From: a virus
Taxonomy: Duplodnaviria; Caudoviricetes
Length of the DNA stretch: 39,011 bases
Direction: 5' to 3' (one strand)
IMG/VR virus record: IMGVR_UViG_3300036859_000283
Location: 1-39,011 of that record
The notes beneath the pieces are model-generated. The model was given only the letters and a program-made list of their open reading frames with translations, did no database searches and was not told the DNA's origin. Below are positions 384 to 26,536 of this stretch, one piece after another. Within the stretch, counting starts at the first letter, position 1, and every line of letters begins with the position of its first letter. The translations under genes were made by a program, and so were the position numbers.

Positions 384-1451
384 ATGGCTGGATTCCAGAA
401 AGCGAAGGCGGAGCAGGCCGCGATCAAGATGGGCATCTACGGCCCGCCCGGGGCTGGCAAGACGTTCACGTCGCTGCTCTTGGCTGAGGGCCTAGCGGCG
501 CTGTCCTGGAAGCGGATTGCCTACGTCGATACCGAGCACGGCACCGACTTCTACTGCAAGGCGGTCAAGAGCCGAGCCGTGCATCCAGAGGCGTTCGACT
601 TCGATGCCATCTATACCCGGAGCATCACGGACGTGATCGCGGCCGTGAACGGCCTGAAGCCTGCCGACCACGGCGTGATCGTGCTCGACTCGATCACGCA
701 TCTGTGGGAAGCCGCGATGGCCGCCTACCGTGGCCCGCGCACCAAGACGGGCGGGATTCCGATCACGGCGTGGGGACGGATCAAGAAGCCCTACAAGGAT
801 CTGATGTCCTACCTGCTGTCGTCGCCGATGCACGTCATTATCTGCGGCCGGCAAGGGCTCATCTACGAAGAGAACGCGGAGACGGGCGAGTCGGCGGTGG
901 TCGGCGTGAAGATGAAGGCGGAGGGCGAGACGCCCTACGAGCCGCACATTCTGATCCGGATGGAGTCCGAGCGCGGCAAGCCCAACGAGATCGCCAGCAT
1001 CATCGCCTACGCCGAAAAGGACCGCACGGGCGTCCTCTCTGGGCGTTCGTTCGTCAACCCGACCTACGCCTCCATCTGTGCGCCGATCGTGGGCCTACTG
1101 GGCGGCACGCAAGCCCAGATCGCCACGGAGGACGAGGCGTCAACCGTAGATGCTGAAGTGTTGGAGCGCCAGGAGCGGGAGCGCGCATCGGAATCGGCGG
1201 ATGTGCTCCGGCGCATGTCGGCCCGGATCGACCTCGCGCCCACCGTTGAAGACCTGAAGGCGATCGGCAAGGAGATCACGCCCAAGCTCAAGGCGTCGAT
1301 GCTGCCGGCTGACGTCGTGCGGCTGCGAGCGAAATACGCCGAGCGTGACGCCTCGCTGAAGTCGGGTGTTCCTGCGAAGCCGGCGCCGACCGATGCCGAA
1401 CTGGATGCCGAGATCGCGGCCAAGGATGGCGAGACGCTCGGAGCCTTCTGA
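384..1451 (+). CDS. Sak4-like AAA/RecA-family ATPase (phage single-strand annealing recombinase)
   Basis: Walker A GPPGAGKT, IAYVDTE, Walker B VIVLDS, N-terminal F.KA.....K motif and KDRTG typical of phage Sak4/AAA_24 proteins. Confidence 0.85.
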   Translation: MAGFQKAKAEQAAIKMGIYGPPGAGKTFTSLLLAEGLAALSWKRIAYVDTEHGTDFYCKAVKSRAVHPEAFDFDAIYTRSITDVIAAVNGLKPADHGVIVLDSITHLWEAAMAAYRGPRTKTGGIPITAWGRIKKPYKDLMSYLLSSPMHVIICGRQGLIYEENAETGESAVVGVKMKAEGETPYEPHILIRMESERGKPNEIASIIAYAEKDRTGVLSGRSFVNPTYASICAPIVGLLGGTQAQIATEDEASTVDAEVLERQERERASESADVLRRMSARIDLAPTVEDLKAIGKEITPKLKASMLPADVVRLRAKYAERDASLKSGVPAKPAPTDAELDAEIAAKDGETLGAF

Positions 1452-8285: not shown

Positions 8286-8335
8286 GTTCTGTTCTGTGGC
8301 CGTGTCCGTGAAGGAGTCAAGGCGATGGAAGATTT

Positions 8336-8380
8336 CACGCGCGTGGACATCCGGACGTGATTCCCGCGTTGCCCTACCGC
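8336..8380 (+). repeat. Bipartite dispersed element, copy A
   Basis: CACGCGCGTGGAC-N25-CTACCGC followed by AACGAGGTG. Confidence 0.85.
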
Positions 8381-8402
8381 AATGGAAAAACGAGGTGATT
8401 TA

Positions 8403-8600
8403 ATGGACACACGAGACGGAACGATCTACGACAGCCGCGAACTGGCAAAGGCAGCCGGAGTGCCTGACGAGGATTTGGTGACTGGCAGCCGTGAGGCGTT
8501 GGAGAAGCTTCGGAAGCGGCTCGTGTTCTCTGGCGGCTCTTTCAAGACCGTCGAGGAAGACGAGGCCAGAAAGCTACTGAAGTCAGAGGTAGGCAGGTGA
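8403..8600 (+). CDS. Hypothetical cargo protein
   Basis: GAGGTG RBS supplied by the tail of element A. Confidence 0.7.
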   Translation: MDTRDGTIYDSRELAKAAGVPDEDLVTGSREALEKLRKRLVFSGGSFKTVEEDEARKLLKSEVGR

Positions 8601-8872
8601 CTCACCTGGAAATCGGAACCATTCTCAGCCATCGCACCAAAGAGGGGATGATCGAATTGGTGCTCAACGGCGAGAAGACGCAGATGGACATCCCGAAGGC
8701 GAAGGAAGTGCTCGGGATGCTCAGCGGCGCGATCGAGGCGGCCGTGTCTGACACGCTGATCTATCGCTTCCTGACGTCCAAGGTGGGCCTGAGCGAAGAC
8801 AAGGCCGCGGCTGCGCTTATGGACTTTCGAGAACTGCGCCAGGGCTCTCGCGAGACGGTGTATCCGAACTGA
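8597..8872 (+). CDS. Hypothetical cargo protein
   Basis: GTGA overlap and GAGG RBS. Confidence 0.7.
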   Translation: MTHLEIGTILSHRTKEGMIELVLNGEKTQMDIPKAKEVLGMLSGAIEAAVSDTLIYRFLTSKVGLSEDKAAAALMDFRELRQGSRETVYPN

Positions 8873-8880
8873 GGTGAGGC

Positions 8881-9135
8881 ATGGAAACAGACTGTTACAT
8901 GGAGTCCAGGCCAACGTTCTGGCAGCGCACGAAGTGGGGGATCTGGAAGGCGCCGCATCGCCCGCTGATCACGAACGACCCGCGCACGTACGTTACGGTG
9001 GAAATGCACACAGCGATCGGGTGGCGAGATCGCATCGGCGTGCTGCTGTTAGGGCGCATACGAAGCACGGTGCTGGTCTACACCGACGTGGAAGTAAAGC
9101 AGGCCGAGAGTCGTGCCGTCACGTGGGTTGAATAG
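8881..9135 (+). CDS. Hypothetical cargo protein
   Basis: GAGGTGAGG RBS. Confidence 0.65.
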   Translation: METDCYMESRPTFWQRTKWGIWKAPHRPLITNDPRTYVTVEMHTAIGWRDRIGVLLLGRIRSTVLVYTDVEVKQAESRAVTWVE

Positions 9136-9156
9136 CGAATCAACTCATTGCTCTAC

Positions 9157-9200
9157 GCGGTAGCTTGTTCTAAACGCTTCACGGCTGTCGGTGGTCGCGA
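9157..9200 (-). repeat. Bipartite dispersed element, copy B (degenerate)
   Basis: Minus strand reads TCGCGACC...GCTACCGC-N7-AATGAGTTG; followed by a pyrimidine tract on the + strand. Confidence 0.55.
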
Positions 9201-9231
9201 CTGATTCTGATCTTTTTCTGAGGCTGTTCTG

Positions 9232-9531
9232 ATGTCTGATGCTGTGCCCTCTCCGGCGGGCGAGGCCCGGAGGACGCTGAGAGACTACTGCGAGCATTTG
9301 GCCGAGTGCGGGATCTGGAAGTGTGCCGTCACGTTCGGCGCCGAGCGTTGCAACGGGCGACAGTTCGATGAGTTCCACTACGCGGGCGCGGCTGACAGCC
9401 ACTCGTTCGTCGCCGGTGTTTGCACCTGTGGCCTGGATGCTCTCTTAGCCGCCGATCCCCTCCCAGCCGAGGACGGGACAGAGAAAGAACGTCATGCGCG
9501 CGTGGACGGCAAAGCTGATGCCCGCCCATAG
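9232..9531 (+). CDS. Cys/His-rich hypothetical protein; C-terminus derived from element C
   Basis: YCEHLAEC...CTCGLDALLA, a pattern common in phage accessory proteins. Confidence 0.7.
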   Translation: MSDAVPSPAGEARRTLRDYCEHLAECGIWKCAVTFGAERCNGRQFDEFHYAGAADSHSFVAGVCTCGLDALLAADPLPAEDGTEKERHARVDGKADARP

Positions 9532-9540
9532 CCCTACCGC
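9495..9540 (+). repeat. Bipartite dispersed element, copy C
   Basis: GCGCGCGTGGAC-N26-CTACCGC. Confidence 0.85.
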
Positions 9541-9580
9541 GGCCAGCGTCTGGGCGCTATCAGCAGATGAAGAGCGCGAC

Positions 9581-9925
9581 GTGATGGCGTTCGATCCGTG
9601 GGGTGAGCGAGATGCGACCTACCGCACCCTACGAAGTTCGTTCGTAGTAGTCCGGTCGGCGCATCAGTGCGCCATTTGTTTTGGTCCCATCGCGACAGGC
9701 GAGCGGGTGTGGTCGAAGTCTGAAGTTGACGATGGCAAGGCCAAGACATTCCGGTTCTGCGCTGAGTGCTGCTGGTGCATTGCGCATCGTTATGACGAAA
9801 ACGAGGACGACCCGCACTTCGGGTTTATGCGCATGGAAGAACGCTGGGAAATAGGCTCCGGGCGGGCGCGCGAAGAACAACAGTCGTCCGCCGCGGTAGG
9901 GCAACGTGGGAGTCACACTGATTGA
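9581..9925 (+). CDS. Zinc-finger-like cargo protein (start uncertain)
   Basis: HQCAIC...I..GE...FCAECC; its stop TGA lies within element D. Confidence 0.7.
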   Translation: MMAFDPWGERDATYRTLRSSFVVVRSAHQCAICFGPIATGERVWSKSEVDDGKAKTFRFCAECCWCIAHRYDENEDDPHFGFMRMEERWEIGSGRAREEQQSSAAVGQRGSHTD

Positions 9926-9941
9926 CCACGCGCGCCAAGTC
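9893..9941 (-). repeat. Bipartite dispersed element, copy D
   Basis: Minus strand GCGCGTGGTC-N24-CTACCGC; 22/24 match to copy A over the distal 24 nt. Confidence 0.88.
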
Positions 9942-9983
9942 TTTATATTTCTTGTATTTACCGAGGACGGGAAGGACCAGTAG

Positions 9984-10490
9984 ATGAGCGAGCGATTGCT
10001 GTCGAAGCTGTTCCGCCACGAAGAAATCAACGGCGCGAACCGGTGCCCGACCTACCTGCATCGTTGGGCGCTGTTCCAGCCGCGGCGGCCCAAGTGGCTC
10101 TGGCGAGGGTTTGGGATCTACCTGCACAAGTTCGTCGGCGACGACTGGAGCCGCGATCTGCACGATCATCCGAAGCGATTCATCAGCATCGGGCTCAAGG
10201 GTTCCTATCGGGAATGGACGTTCAACGAGCGGGCGGCGACGTGTCCGTGTCCGGAAGAGCACGAACACATCATGGCGACGGACTATCACGCGCCGTGGGT
10301 GCGGACATTCCCCGCAAGTCACATTCACCGGATCGTGTTGGTGGACGACAGGCAGCCGTGCTGGACGCTCGTCATCGTGCTCTGGCACGTCCGCGAGTGG
10401 GGCTTTTGGCATCGCGGCAGCTTCATGCCCTGGCGTGGCTACGTGGCCCAAGGTAATGCTATCGCCGACGAACGAAAGGCGTGCCCATGA
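9984..10490 (+). CDS. Cupin-like conserved phage protein
   Basis: YLHKF...D..RDLHDHP..FIS..L.G.Y.E...H.HRI.L...WTLV...R.WGFW. Confidence 0.7.
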   Translation: MSERLLSKLFRHEEINGANRCPTYLHRWALFQPRRPKWLWRGFGIYLHKFVGDDWSRDLHDHPKRFISIGLKGSYREWTFNERAATCPCPEEHEHIMATDYHAPWVRTFPASHIHRIVLVDDRQPCWTLVIVLWHVREWGFWHRGSFMPWRGYVAQGNAIADERKACP

Positions 10491-12319
10491 CGATGTTTAA
10501 CCCCTCCCCCGGTGCCGCGCCGTCCCCAGCCAGGAAGAAGCTGATCGAGGACATTCTGTGGCTGGAAAGCTTCTACACCTACGCGAACACAGAGCAGCCG
10601 AGCCTGGCCAACAGCGAGGAATGGCAAACGGTCAAGGAGGCGGCGCTCGCGGCACCTTCGAAGATTGATACGCCAGCCGGTGAAGCGACCAATCATGAGT
10701 TGGCGGCGTTGCTACGTAAGTGGTGCAAGCCGTATCCGTCCGGCGAGTGCTGTATGTGCCAGTCGCCACCTGAAGAATATTGCGACGAAGAATGCAAGGT
10801 GCCGGCGCTGATGTTGATGGCGAACAGGCTCGAACAGGCAGCGCTCGCGGCGTCCCCTGTCTCCCATGTTCAAGCCGAGACACGCGAAGAGTTACTCGAT
10901 CAACTCGGTCCAGTCGCGCCAGTCGCGGAAGAGTTGATGCGCCGCATGGCGGTCTCCCCGGCTGATCCCGCGCCCGTGGCGTGGTGTGCTTTTGCGCATG
11001 CGAATGCTGGCCAGACCTGCCGCGAGCTCAGGCCGGGCGATTCGGCGAGTTGGTGTCACGGCTGCGATCCCGCCATCCAGAGAGAGCAGTATTTGGCAAT
11101 CAATAAGTGCCCGAACCACGGCTTCTACTCGATCACTGTTGAAGACGACGACACAGGGACGCGCGTCACGCCCTCTAAGTGCTGCGGACGCTGGGACACC
11201 GTTAAGCGTTGGAAAGTGTCACAGTGCGATCTCGCATCCCTCCTCGCCGCTCAGTCACAGCCCGCGCCCGTGGCGTCCCCATCGGTGAGAGAGCAGCTAA
11301 CCTTCGAGGCATTCAGCGCGGCCAATCTGGAGCGGTGTGAGAGTCCTGAAGGGTTCGCCCACGACCTTCACGCGTGGTCAGCGTCCGACTGGATGACGGC
11401 CCTGGTCGGTGAGGTTGGGGAGGCAGCGAACATCATCAAGAAGCTGAATCGCTATCGTGACGGCGCACGCGGGAACAATGAGTCCGAGGATGCGCTGCGC
11501 GTGAAGCTCCGCAAGGAATTGGGCGACGTGTTCGTCTATCTCGACCTGATTTGCATATCACAAGGCTTCACAGTGCGCGATGCTGCGGTCGAAGTATTCA
11601 ACGACAAGTCGCGGCAAATTGGCTACCCAGTTCTGCTCGCCGCTCAGCCACTCCCCGGAGGCGTCAAGCCCCCAGTCCAGGACGAACAGGAAAAGCACGA
11701 TACGCGCGTGGACAGTTTGAGCTTCGCCAACTCACCGCTCGCAACGACCGCAGGGTCGAACGAGGTGCCTCCGTCGCCTGCTCATACACGTCTCATGGTG
11801 CCGCCCATCAATGGCGAGTTCGTCAACGCGAAGGCCGCGCACTGGACTATGGTGAGCGTCTACAGCCGCGAGATGGACCTGATCGGGCGACGCGATTTCG
11901 CTGTGCATGTCGAAACAGAGGAACCGCGTAACGAAGCCCAAGAGCGCGTCGTTCGCCGCGGCAATCGCTACTACCCGACAACGGTGACGATAGATGTTGG
12001 TGATGCCGACGTGTGGATGCATCCGGCCGAAGCACGCGAACTAGCCGCGTATCTTATTGAGGCGGCAGATGTGGCCGACGCCTGCGATTTACCAGACGGC
12101 GACAAATGCGGGCACTGGGCACCCTGCGACTGCGAGCAGGCTGTCGCGAAGGACAGCGCGGGCTCGTTACTGGACTCGCATCCCAACGATGGCCGCGTGG
12201 AAAACAAGAACGACTCTCTTGATCAGGCCCGAGCCGACGCCTACTCCCAGGGCGGCACCGACCTCGCGCGAGGCGTGAAACCAGCGGCGGCCACGGAGCG
12301 GAAGGAGCCGACGCCATGA
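10487..12319 (+). CDS. Mosaic multi-module accessory protein containing a MazG-like nucleotide pyrophosphohydrolase domain
   Basis: MazG-type LVGEVGEAANIIKK...LRKELGDVFVYL at ~11290-11635; other Cys-rich modules joined by AALAA/PAPVA linkers. Confidence 0.75.
   Translation: MTMFNPSPGAAPSPARKKLIEDILWLESFYTYANTEQPSLANSEEWQTVKEAALAAPSKIDTPAGEATNHELAALLRKWCKPYPSGECCMCQSPPEEYCDEECKVPALMLMANRLEQAALAASPVSHVQAETREELLDQLGPVAPVAEELMRRMAVSPADPAPVAWCAFAHANAGQTCRELRPGDSASWCHGCDPAIQREQYLAINKCPNHGFYSITVEDDDTGTRVTPSKCCGRWDTVKRWKVSQCDLASLLAAQSQPAPVASPSVREQLTFEAFSAANLERCESPEGFAHDLHAWSASDWMTALVGEVGEAANIIKKLNRYRDGARGNNESEDALRVKLRKELGDVFVYLDLICISQGFTVRDAAVEVFNDKSRQIGYPVLLAAQPLPGGVKPPVQDEQEKHDTRVDSLSFANSPLATTAGSNEVPPSPAHTRLMVPPINGEFVNAKAAHWTMVSVYSREMDLIGRRDFAVHVETEEPRNEAQERVVRRGNRYYPTTVTIDVGDADVWMHPAEARELAAYLIEAADVADACDLPDGDKCGHWAPCDCEQAVAKDSAGSLLDSHPNDGRVENKNDSLDQARADAYSQGGTDLARGVKPAAATERKEPTP
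11701..11751 (+). repeat. Bipartite dispersed element, copy E (read through in frame)
   Basis: TACGCGCGTGGAC-N31-CGACCGC followed by AACGAGGTG, as in copy A. Confidence 0.75.
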
Positions 12320-12543
12320 GCACAGAGCAAGACGGAGAGTGCCCGCGTTGCTGGCTGCCCAACGGGCACGCTGGGTCGTGTGACCACCCAATCCAGAGGG
12401 ATTGGGCTCCACATGTCGTGAGGGTGATCGGTGGCTTACTGCTCCTCTATGTCGTGAGCAGGCCCGAGGCGGAATGGCGCGCGTTCGCCATGGGGGCGGC
12501 CGGCGTGTGGATACTACGGATACTGATGCCGAGGTGGTTCTGA
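12316..12543 (+). CDS. Small membrane protein
   Basis: AAGGAG RBS; CxxC...H...C, then two hydrophobic segments. Confidence 0.65.
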   Translation: MSTEQDGECPRCWLPNGHAGSCDHPIQRDWAPHVVRVIGGLLLLYVVSRPEAEWRAFAMGAAGVWILRILMPRWF

Positions 12544-12935
12544 TGGTGCCTGATGTGTCCCCCGCCTCCGTAGAGCGGCTGATCGAAGAACTGAAGCGGT
12601 ATCACCACGTCTCAGATGACTGCTGGTATTCCTGTCCGCTCAGCGACGAAGGCTGCTGTAACCACGATGAGACTGGCTGCACCTGTGGAGCCACTACCCA
12701 TAACGAGCAAGTTGATGCGGCTCTAGAAGCCGTGCGCGCCCTCCTCGCCGAGCGAGACGCATGGAAAGACCAAGCCGAGGACGATCAAGCGGACGCACGA
12801 CGTGACCGCGAGTTGCGGCAGCACGCCCAAGCCGAGCGAGACGCCGCCGTAGCGCTCTTGCGCAATGTGAACCCGAACAGCTACCCGGTAATCGCGGCGT
12901 GGCTGGCTGCCCGCGACGCGAAGGAGCAGGGATGA
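12543..12935 (+). CDS. Cys-rich hypothetical protein with coiled coil
   Basis: TGATG coupling, GAGG RBS; DCWYSCP...CC...CTCG. Confidence 0.7.
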   Translation: MVPDVSPASVERLIEELKRYHHVSDDCWYSCPLSDEGCCNHDETGCTCGATTHNEQVDAALEAVRALLAERDAWKDQAEDDQADARRDRELRQHAQAERDAAVALLRNVNPNSYPVIAAWLAARDAKEQG

Positions 12936-13207
12936 GCATGTTCGTCGCTGGCTTGTCCGGGTTTCTCGGCGGTGTGACGCTCATGACCTACGCCGCTGCG
13001 CGTGTTTACGAAGGCGCGGACCGTCCGTTCGTGGCGGTGGGCTTCACCTTCGCGTTCCTCATTGTTGGCGGCTTCCAGGCTTATTATATCCGCCAGGGCG
13101 AGCGCCGAGACGAACGCCGCGAGATCGAACGCGAGTATGAACGGTTGTTGGAGGCACGACGAGCCGACGACGCGGTAGCTCGCTCCGTTGGAGGCAGCAC
13201 GACATGA
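12932..13207 (+). CDS. Two-TM membrane protein
   Basis: AAGGAG RBS; two hydrophobic helices; stop TGA within element F. Confidence 0.7.
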   Translation: MSMFVAGLSGFLGGVTLMTYAAARVYEGADRPFVAVGFTFAFLIVGGFQAYYIRQGERRDERREIEREYERLLEARRADDAVARSVGGSTT

Positions 13208-13223
13208 CCACGCGCGCGAAGTC
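13172..13223 (-). repeat. Bipartite dispersed element, copy F
   Basis: Minus strand GCGCGTGGTC-N27-CTACCGC; TGACCACGCGCGC(G/C)AAGTC is 18/19 identical to copy D. Confidence 0.88.
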
Positions 13224-13271
13224 GTGCTCTGTCTGTTCTTTGACGTTCTCCACCCCAGGGAGGTCCACCCC

Positions 13272-24549: not shown

Positions 24550-26536
24550 TCGGCAGGCGGACCCTGTCATCTACACCGGCCTCCGCGGGCGGGACGGGAG
24601 CACGACCGCCCAGATCGAGATTCCGGAGCACAAGGCGAAAGAGTGCCTGAATGTGGATTTCTTTCAGGCGGCTTTGGCTCGAAAGCGAGGCGGGGCGACG
24701 GATGCCTTTGCGCTGACCACGAGCGAGAACACGTCCTCTGTGACTTCGGCCCTGATCCGTCATGTGCCGAGCGCAGACGAGACGCTGGCGGAACTGTGGA
24801 TGGTGACCGGTGCGGCCACACCGATCGTGCAGCGACTCGCGGCTGGGACGGCGTGGGCCTCGATCACGGTGGGAGACGCGATCGCGACCCGTCCTCAGGA
24901 CGTGTGGGGCGTGTCCTTCAATGGCAAGCTGTTCCTGTTCTACGACAGCACGCAAGACCGCGGACACGTCTACGATCCGGCCATCAGCACCACCGCCCTG
25001 AGGCGCACAGGACTTACCACGCCCTCCGCCGCCCCGACCGTAGCGAATACCGGATCGGGGTCGTACGCGGCGACACAGCGGTGGTATCGCGTCCGTGAAG
25101 TCATTCTGGTGAGTAGTGTCACCGTGCTCATTTCTGAAGCCTCCGCGGCCGTGGCCTTCACACCGTCTGGGTCTGGAACGGCGGCGCGAGTCACGAAGCC
25201 ATCGGACATGGGTGAGGGGGCCACTCATTGGCGCCTGGAAGCTTCGGCCACGTCCTCAGATGGGCCGTTCTACATCCTCGCAACGACCGTGGTCGGAACC
25301 ACGACGTACGACGATTCCGCCGCGACGACGGCGTACAGCAACGGCACCCCGACGGAAGTCGCGGGCGACTATACACGCCCGTCCAGCTTCAAGTACGGAA
25401 TCGCGGACGGCGCGCGGCTCCTGATGGCGGGGCCGAATGAAGCGGGGATTGATCCGTCGTCGGTGTTCTTCACGACGGTCTTAGGCTCGAGCCGGGCGGA
25501 AACCGGCGGGGCGTCGTACTACGACGACGAACGGGTGCCCACGAGCAACAAGATCCCGCTCGACCCGAAGGACGGCGGAGAAATCACCGGATTTGGTGGG
25601 CCGTTCGAGAACCAGGTGATTGCCTTCAAGTACCGGCAGGTCTGGCGGCTGATTCCGACCGGGATTGAGGACGACCCCTATCGACGCAAGGCCGTGTCCA
25701 AGGTCGTGGGGAGTATCCGCCAACAGGCCGTCGTCATGGCGGAGGATGAATCCGGGAACCCTACCCTGTACTGGCTGTCGCACCTCGGGCCGTATCGCTT
25801 CAATCTTCAACAAGGGCTGTCGAAGCTCGTGTGGGATGTGCAGGACATCTGGAGCACGGTGAACCTTGCGGCGACGACCGCGACGTGCCACGGGGTGTAC
25901 CACTCCGATCGCCATCAGATTTGGTGGTGGGTCTCGGTCAGCGCGGAGAACGAACCCACCACCACGAAACTCGTCTTCGATACGCGCCTGGGCCGGATGA
26001 CGCAGGCCGGCGACGTGCGGGACGGGTGGAGTAAGCACACGGGCGAAACGGCCAAAGCTCGCTGCTCGGTGATGTTCGCGAACACACTCGGCGCCACGGT
26101 GTCACGGGACCTCAAGCCCTACATCGGCCAGAACGGCGGCAACGGGCGGCTGTGGAAACTGGACACGACGGATCAGGATGACGCCGGAACGGCCTTTCAA
26201 GGTCTCGTGACCTTCCCCGATCGGCATTACGGTGGGCTCGACCATGCCTGTGCGGTGCGAACGCCGATCGTCCTCGGGACTGCGGGGAGCGTCACGATCA
26301 CGGTGGGGATGACGCCGAACTATGACAGCGCGGCCCAGCAGACCGGCTCCGTCTCGATGGTGGCGACCGGGAGTGAAACGCGCGTCTTGCGAGCCGTGGA
26401 AGGCGTGGAGCTCGGCGACGAGATCTATGCCGCGGCGGTCTCGGTGGGGGATGGGGCGGCGGCGGCCACGGCCCAGTGGACGCTGGATGCGTTGATCGTG
26501 CCGGTCGAGCGCCGGCAAGAACTGGTGCCGGTCTAA
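24542..26536 (+). CDS. Tail nozzle / DNA-stabilisation protein (P22 gp10 / T7 gp12-like)
   Basis: 664 aa, beta-propeller-like; ECLNVDF...RKRGG N-terminus; DG.EITG; position after the adaptor. Confidence 0.75.
   Translation: MASRQADPVIYTGLRGRDGSTTAQIEIPEHKAKECLNVDFFQAALARKRGGATDAFALTTSENTSSVTSALIRHVPSADETLAELWMVTGAATPIVQRLAAGTAWASITVGDAIATRPQDVWGVSFNGKLFLFYDSTQDRGHVYDPAISTTALRRTGLTTPSAAPTVANTGSGSYAATQRWYRVREVILVSSVTVLISEASAAVAFTPSGSGTAARVTKPSDMGEGATHWRLEASATSSDGPFYILATTVVGTTTYDDSAATTAYSNGTPTEVAGDYTRPSSFKYGIADGARLLMAGPNEAGIDPSSVFFTTVLGSSRAETGGASYYDDERVPTSNKIPLDPKDGGEITGFGGPFENQVIAFKYRQVWRLIPTGIEDDPYRRKAVSKVVGSIRQQAVVMAEDESGNPTLYWLSHLGPYRFNLQQGLSKLVWDVQDIWSTVNLAATTATCHGVYHSDRHQIWWWVSVSAENEPTTTKLVFDTRLGRMTQAGDVRDGWSKHTGETAKARCSVMFANTLGATVSRDLKPYIGQNGGNGRLWKLDTTDQDDAGTAFQGLVTFPDRHYGGLDHACAVRTPIVLGTAGSVTITVGMTPNYDSAAQQTGSVSMVATGSETRVLRAVEGVELGDEIYAAAVSVGDGAAAATAQWTLDALIVPVERRQELVPV

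Follow-up and report, generated by a model that had tools for sequence, protein, structure and literature searches.

Paired inverted ends bracket small optional genes in a widespread family of soil phage cassettes

In MIC231 of Bacillus cereus, the Tn3-type MICs of Xanthomonas and the TIME mosaics, passenger genes lie between inverted ends, the element lacks a transposase of its own and the target is duplicated (PMC4337579, PMC4133298). The dif modules of Acinetobacter plasmids carry accessory genes between alternating, inversely oriented bipartite sites, and modules replace each other (PMC13141974), while the cassettes of integrons and of phage CALINs hold compact open reading frames (ORFs) captured near the start codon, DNA methylases among them, and the enzyme may be absent from the phage (PMC9892861). 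The mycobacteriophage elements MPME1 and MPME2, about 440 bp long, have a single constant ORF of 123 aa and typically include an extra segment of 6 bp (PMC4351075), and the PeSL cassettes of T4-type phages are promoter-terminator units whose repeats lie in hyperplastic regions where genes shuffle (PMC2839356). Long target repeats are described for insertion sequences (ISs): 5-6, 16-17 or 27-28 bp in the IS1202 family (bioRxiv 2022.12.17.520857) and a variable 8-514 bp in IS1549 and IS1634, for which the cited account proposes no mechanism (PMC2266710). Here we describe a family of inward-facing, two-block DNA ends that enclose small accessory genes, starting from a window of 39,011 nucleotides, the tailed-phage record IMGVR_UViG_3300036859_000283 of IMG/VR. 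As far as the cited accounts describe their systems, the family works like a MIC and swaps its cargo like dif modules, and it lacks the defining property of each.

The repeats are a real and widespread phage family of paired ends that bracket small optional genes in many unrelated soil phages. We collected 257 distinct elements from viral and metagenome contigs; neighbors within 2.5 kb of each other face inward in 75 cases, outward in 34 and in the same direction in 15, a half copy in the window having been added by hand. A loose pattern scan of viral contigs gave mostly chance matches and was replaced by strict scans, which returned 116 and 73 stretches of IMG/VR (189 loci). Of the 27 match lengths allowed, five (42-46 nt) account for 102 of the 176 distinct viral matches from the strict scans. 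A two-block profile, built from 60 seed copies, scores at least 30 in 102 of the 189 IMG/VR loci and in 110 of 124 metagenome loci, the latter from a scan that covered 29 of 64 parts. The reversed pattern had no match in 50 records, and reversed sequence gave one profile match in 963 kb. Prokaryote genomes (GTDB, 596 Gb) contain three exact matches, one or two per genome: one in a phage-like contig, one that scores as an element and is unannotated, and one under the profile threshold. Rfam, the INPHARED phages and the PLSDB plasmids yielded nothing relevant beyond one weak 41-nt match. The phages that carry the elements differ in capsid and terminase type; podoviruses of P22-like and SU10-like kinds and HK97-like siphoviruses are among them. 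On one metagenome contig (L514), two near-identical right ends (124-168 and 801-845) stand in direct orientation around an oppositely oriented ORF, beside a permease gene of the ADOP family; this may be a copy in a chromosome or at the edge of a prophage. The ADOP family is, we assume, a marker of Acidobacteriota, and the host group is therefore only hinted at. No description of these ends or cassettes was found in the literature searched, which covered few subscription papers; the family is apparently newly described here.

As judged by comparison of related genomes, which is the whole of our evidence for mobility, cassettes are gained and their cargo is exchanged. The earlier note, which was based on the window alone, had predicted presence/absence breakpoints at the elements, alternating orientation and variable cargo in related contigs, and all of these, an empty-site allele included, were found in other genomes, the breakpoints at loci other than the window. 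Loci L165 and L194 carry cassettes at the overlap of terS and terL; their flanks are 81-89% alike and their cargo is unrelated. In L320, whose terL is 93% identical, there is no cassette and the 20-bp terS/terL overlap is present in a single copy. In L165 and L194 this overlap stands on both sides of the cassette, the right copy of L194 being exactly the empty allele of L320 and the left copies of the filled alleles having drifted. Since elements sit at this junction in only these 2 of 80 terL loci, and at least six relatives align across it without a gap, the empty allele is probably ancestral. A second left breakpoint, between G040 and L242, lies 20 nt outside block A (the outer block of the end), just past a start codon, and the downstream genes differ.

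Repeats flanking the cassettes extend this picture. The direction of the genes could be used to orient 69 of the 75 inward pairs, and all statistics on ends and flanks refer to these 69. Flanking repeats that score at least 10 occur in 20 of the 69 cognate pairs, against 2.0% of cross-locus pairings and 1 of 24 non-cognate pairings within a locus, and in 17 pairs the repeat is exact over 11-22 nt. Exchange of cargo can be located more finely: in L466/L521, L137/L152 and L149/L187 the sequences diverge within about 10-20 nt inside block B, the inner block, and in L165/L194 they diverge at block A. L149 and L187 have the ends and the flanking repeat in common and not the distal flanks. A second, unrelated family of gene-boundary repeats, about 25-40 bp long, occurs in one phage group (L137, L149, L152, L166, L174, L179 and L187, several copies each), and the cassettes there lie inside the repeat. 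No strand-changing joint was seen at the elements in three contig sets, but contigs drop rare forms and are hence silent on excision. We considered an invertible segment or shufflon and set it aside, the cargo having the same orientation as its flanks in 104 of 108 gene calls and the opposite one in 4.

Read in its own orientation, an end of about 90 bp is composed of an outer tract, a T-rich step, block A, a spacer, block B and an inner arm. The tract (15-25 nt) is rich in GAA and GAC, with A at every third base. Block A reads CGCGCGTGGWC and begins one base earlier than the core as first drawn; block B is usually GGATCTACCGC, and the spacer between them varies, giving a core of 42-52 nt. The inner arm of about 20 nt is weakly conserved. 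The best direct match of the profile to itself, at an offset of 40 nt, sets block A against block B. The two ends of a cassette also differ in what they offer a gene. The W of block A is A in 57 left ends and T, which produces TGA, in 33 right ends; GAGG or GGAG stands at +10/+11 in 34 of 69 left arms versus 1 of 69 right arms; and a start codon stands 18-26 nt inward of block B in 37 of 69. From these signals, left ends appear often to provide a ribosome-binding site and right ends a stop codon. Cargo ORFs reach the right end in 64 cases: 55 share one frame of entry, 7 use the frame closed by the TAG of block B and 2 use the third. The cores of a pair are separated by 47-1829 bp, and the cargo averages 2 points lower in GC. 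Pfam assigns 76 cargo proteins to five methylases, two Acb2/Tad1 proteins, SLOG, T5orf172, RyR and a few DUFs, with most left unmatched, and one gene is the cargo of three cassettes, each with a different C-terminal junction. Acb2/Tad1 inside cassettes, together with Tad4 about 300 bp from a cassette, was noted at L423:18568-18786, L510:1974-2207 and L154:4969-5703.

These properties allow a closer comparison with the systems introduced above, as far as the cited accounts describe them. Like MICs and TIMEs, the cassettes have passengers between inverted ends, no transposase inside and a target duplication (20 of 69 pairs, one clean case). MIC and TIME ends derive from ISs or Tn3, have a fixed tip, make duplications of 5-6 bp (Tn3 type) and have a known cognate transposase; here the termini lie at variable distances without a shared tip, so that fixed terminal bases do not abut the duplication, the repeats measure 12-25 bp, the family is restricted to phages, the ends are fused to the reading frame of the cargo and cargo is replaced in place. 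No transposase bounded by the ends was found, in a comparison that contained no collection of IS ends. The long duplication recalls IS1202, IS1549 and IS1634, but these have a DDE transposase and short terminal repeats that abut the duplication (with TGT tips in IS1202 groups), neither of which is seen here. Alternating, inversely oriented sites around accessory genes are common to this family and to dif modules, which differ in having two 11-bp XerC/XerD sites, a fixed 6-bp spacer and inversions, as against cores of 42-52 nt, no Xer motif, no inverted cargo and a target duplication. Integron cassettes share the compact ORF cargo taken from near the start codon, the DNA methylases and an enzyme possibly absent from the phage, yet they have one site in a direct array where we find two inverted ends per cassette; only 15 of the 124 neighbor pairs are direct, the attC boxes RYYYAAC/GTTRRRY occur in 0 of 257 cores and in none of six window regions, and no conserved single-strand hairpin of attC type with compensatory changes was found. 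The earlier note had separated the motif from attC sites and classical IS termini, and the wider collection agrees. MPMEs are likewise small inverted-repeat elements in unrelated phages that form hybrids by recombination (PMC4351075), but in the present family size and cargo vary. PeSL cassettes resemble it in their repeats within hyperplastic regions at which genes shuffle, whereas the ends described here have no consistent promoter and arrive together as inverted pairs.

The window itself is a tailed phage over its whole 39 kb, with a terminase, an SU10-type head and adaptor, Sak4, two HNH genes and a methylase, and all 53 called genes lie on the + strand. CheckV puts the completeness of the record at 71%, so the phage may possess a gene that the record lacks; the stretch from 7.5 to 14.5 kb is present in full in two soil metagenome runs, each a possible source, and no RNA run was listed as containing it. 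The pattern proposed in the earlier note has exactly five matches, at 8339-8380 (+), 9498-9540 (+), 9893-9933 (-), 11704-11751 (+) and 13172-13215 (-), with spacers of 24-31 nt, where the chance mean is 0.01 and none of 100 shuffles reaches five, far from the background frequency that would have spoken against the motif. The two-block profile recovers the same five copies and no others, even at a very low threshold, and has no match at threshold 10 in 20 shuffled windows. A sixth copy had been claimed at 9157-9200 (-); only its inner block stands, a block B at 9157-9163 that has the third-best minus-strand score (11.7 bits) and a purine tract outside it, while block A is absent and the copy fails the full profile. 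The strict +,-,+,-,+,- alternation holds when this half end is counted and not otherwise. The confinement of the full motif to the accessory region, the purine-rich tract on the outer side of the copies and the one to four ORFs enclosed per pair were all borne out. Lone half-sites were also seen, a good block-B match inside cargo 2 (9614-9635, +) and a block-A-like match in a structural gene (about 24712-24743, -).

Three cassettes can be drawn on this basis. The left end of cassette 1 (8319-8402, +) has a purine tract at about 8319-8337, its core at 8338-8380 and, in the inner arm, GAGG at 8392-8395 upstream of an ATG at 8403; its probable outer limit is taken from likeness to G040 downstream of the Arc-like gene. 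Cargo 1 (8403-9135, +) comprises three small ORFs (8403-8600, 8597-8872 and 8881-9135), the first of which has homologues as cargo of two other cassettes (L423 and L510), and is closed by the degenerate right end (9157-9220, -) made up of block B and the outer tract. Between cassettes 1 and 2, an ORF (9232-9531, +) crosses left end 2 with its 3' end and stops within the spacer. Cassette 2 has a left end at 9479-9560 (+; 18-nt tract, core 9497-9540, inner arm), a cargo of one cysteine-rich 114-aa ORF (9581-9925, +; phrog_19515) that reads on into the right end, where the TGA of block A terminates it, and a right end at 9875-9960 (-; inner arm, core 9893-9934, 26-nt tract). A 12-bp direct repeat that the earlier note had not reported flanks this cassette at 9467-9478 (+) and 9961-9972 (+), covers the ribosome-binding site of the gene at 9984 and is a probable target duplication. 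A nested pairing of the copies at 8338 and 9893, 92% identical over a common stretch of 24 nt, was considered and dropped, no flanking repeat being found in its support. The only sigma-70-like promoter match of the region points outward from right end 2 and its tract (9922-9949), in a count at chance level. The gene between cassettes 2 and 3 (9984-10490, +; phrog_4786, cysteine-dioxygenase-like) has 10 distant relatives without elements nearby. It is followed by a 612-aa modular ORF with a MazG-like domain (10481-12319, +), which runs in frame through left end 3 (11680-11770, +; tract, core 11703-11751 with a long spacer and a block B variant, inner arm) into the first cargo segment. ORFs that read through the ends, here and at left end 2, are likewise an addition to the earlier picture. 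Cargo 3 (11771-13207, +) consists of the 3' part of the 612-aa ORF and ORFs at 12316-12543, 12543-12935 and about 12938-13207, the last ending at the TGA of block A, so that two cargo ORFs of the window terminate within a right end. Right end 3 spans 13155-13250 (-; inner arm, core 13172-13216, tract), and cassette 3 has no clear flanking repeat. In a minor allele of run X2, 607 bp of the 612-aa ORF (10654-11260) are replaced by 256 other bases, bounded by Ala/Pro-rich linker repeats and not by elements.

Units present or absent at one site, with different genes inside the same ends, make it likely that the ends are handles for a moving enzyme. We place about even weight on the reading that the paired repeats are the ends of cassettes that vary in presence and cargo, bound by a putative sequence-specific enzyme that acts in trans and inserts them with a long target duplication. 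Blocks A and B, as similar sites 40 bp apart, would be read as double-stranded DNA, and the protein would join both ends of one cassette. A cut or priming event would then take place at a loose distance outside block A, with joining to the target at staggered positions about 12-25 bp apart; an insertion would survive where it duplicates a stop/start junction, since both neighbors stay intact. Crossovers at either block between co-infecting phages could later give an inserted cassette new cargo, probably through the phages' own annealing proteins (Sak4, ERF and RecT types); the ribosome-binding site would then come from the left end, and a C-terminal tail and stop from the right. The Sak4-like single-strand annealing protein of the window (384-1451, +) is a candidate helper for cargo swapping only and is not part of the element.

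Recognition of sequence rather than of a fold is suggested by the ends themselves. Blocks A and B can be joined by a stem with a bulged C, which 54 of 123 minimum-energy folds contain, and on its own strand the complete element is slightly more stable than its shuffles (RNA mean z -0.62), which is weak folding. No compensatory changes were found in this stem across 213 elements, and a covariation scan of length-matched sets of 111, 65 and 19 elements detected no helix; an attC-like or REP-like hairpin was rejected on these grounds. Agreement over the 5 nt just outside block B is 0.72 for the paired ends of a cassette, versus 0.58 when permuted (0 of 3000), and 0.64 versus 0.49 when set against pairings across the cassettes of one locus, in a small sample. 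Only these bases beside block B match, and a panhandle with cassette-specific pairing was discarded. In combination, the lack of covariation and a subtype beside block B that is common to both ends are read as one protein recognizing the sequence of both ends.

Several observations weigh against this reading. The conservation of the core across the family is partly imposed by the search pattern. There is only one clean three-way comparison of empty and filled alleles and none for the window, where searches for empty alleles of its own cassettes returned only the same genome or distant, element-free relatives. Good flanking repeats are lacking in 49 of 69 pairs; the exact ones are separated from the core by 14-59 nt on the left and 8-41 nt on the right and have no common terminal bases, unlike those of DDE transposons, and the repeats of L137, L149, L152 and L187 belong to the second, genome-wide boundary repeat and are perhaps not duplications. 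From codon-phase microhomology alone, 50-61% of fusions would be expected in the favored frame, and the remainder of the bias at right ends may come from selection. No enzyme of the proposed kind was found either. As the earlier note held, no transposase or integrase, nor a resolvase, is found among the 61 window ORFs scanned with Pfam and PHROGs, which gave weak matches to the helix-turn-helix only. Neither a transposase nor a recombinase was found among 76 cargo and 55 flanking proteins, and no autonomous copy was seen. Pfam on 410 of 478 cluster representatives (the 68 left out being mostly from structural regions) found ordinary integrases, HNH, GIY-YIG and annealing proteins and two transposases, none of the transposases bounded by ends: the IS1595-family transposase inserted in the accessory region of an element-bearing phage (L288:4292-5194) and the IS1-like one in L242 were thus rejected. 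Tyrosine integrases occur in only 9 of 49 records and lie at least 3 kb from the elements where checked, L506 excepted, so an Xer-type or other tyrosine recombinase was rejected as partner; Y1 transposases occur in 0 of 49 records, and the widest-shared protein family reaches 13 of 22 records at most. At that exception, L506 (3579-5046), a tyrosine integrase gene is followed downstream, after about 200 bp, by an unpaired element. The earlier proposal of non-autonomous cargo units moved in trans is therefore upheld for the units, their variable cargo and their breakpoints and not for the enzyme, none being found to co-occur with the ends. Long target duplications at a variable distance from the core, new cargo within ends that stay in place and the expression signals of the ends go beyond what that note foresaw.

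Loose termini argue against a standard DDE transposase, and we retain, as somewhat unlikely, a route that needs no enzyme of this kind at all, in which the inverted ends pair as a single-stranded panhandle and annealing proteins or template switching copy the unit via short homologies. The blocks would stay universal through the need, once ends have been shuffled, for every left end to pair with every right one. Such a route accommodates the imprecision of both outer and inner junctions, the apparent donor gene start held by some right tracts (L139), the in-frame bias that microhomology partly predicts, the Sak4, ERF, RecT and YqaJ genes of these phages and the module swapped at linker repeats in run X2. 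It would leave the resemblance of blocks A and B at a near-fixed distance unexplained, however, and cognate ends are not more complementary than permuted ones in the inner arm or the first half of the spacer and only marginally so in the tract (p 0.045); the 20-bp repeat at terL genuinely reproduces the target. Exchange at the blocks by a host site-specific recombinase, as in dif modules, with segments between inward and between outward pairs both serving as modules, is in our judgment quite unlikely. The alternating orientation, the pseudo-palindromic character of blocks A and B and the replacement of cargo by cargo at the blocks, as the cited account describes for dif modules (PMC13141974), would fit, but the core varies in length, a XerD-type motif is at chance level and absent from the ends, both ends reach an empty site together with the duplication outside them, the co-orientation of cargo with its flanks means that inversions are not seen, and four allele pairs already suggest crossovers spread over blocks and arms rather than at one fixed position.

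Two further explanations assign the ends a different primary role or a different enzyme. If they were regulatory or RNA-processing signals (terminators, promoters, RNase III stems or single-strand promoters) with recombination homology secondary, as in PeSL cassettes, then right ends that look like a hairpin followed by pyrimidines, the built-in ribosome-binding sites and stop codons and the slightly better folding on the element's own strand would be accounted for. We regard this as very improbable given the lack of covariation and of any Rfam match, counts of promoter-like and terminator-like sequences at chance level, upstream ends that lie antisense to such a role and ends that arrive paired with a duplication. 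Hardly probable at all is a REPIN-like arrangement, in which a host HUH (RAYT) transposase would use the invariant GTAG opposite block B and cut at a variable distance. The GTAG, the inverted pairs and the variable end positions invite the comparison; yet TnpA-REP is described in the cited account as requiring a palindrome preceded by the motif (PMC8266576), and here a hairpin directly follows GTAG in only 8 of 257 elements, which also distinguishes the family from REP and REPIN sequences. GTAG moreover points outward, the elements are not abundant in prokaryote genomes and the 49 records are without the Y1 gene.

Beyond insertion by an enzyme in trans, we tentatively entertain, at well below even weight, a new class of phage gene capture. 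Its ends would be a universal expression adapter, with a ribosome-binding site at the entry and a stop codon at the exit, by which podo- and siphophages that are unrelated but infect one soil host group could take up, insert and trade single genes, including anti-defense genes, through a new type of enzyme with loose cutting and long duplications, an integron-like pool without attC or IntI. Our findings bear on how phages gain and swap small accessory genes and on how single ORFs enter cassettes precisely from their start codon. Phages that differ in capsid and terminase type have one end sequence in common, and its cargo includes methylases and the anti-defense genes Acb2/Tad1. The empty and filled alleles, together with the mapped swap points, make the mechanism testable. 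The profile is a marker for accessory and anti-defense genes, and possibly for a new insertion enzyme, in the phages of uncultured soil bacteria.

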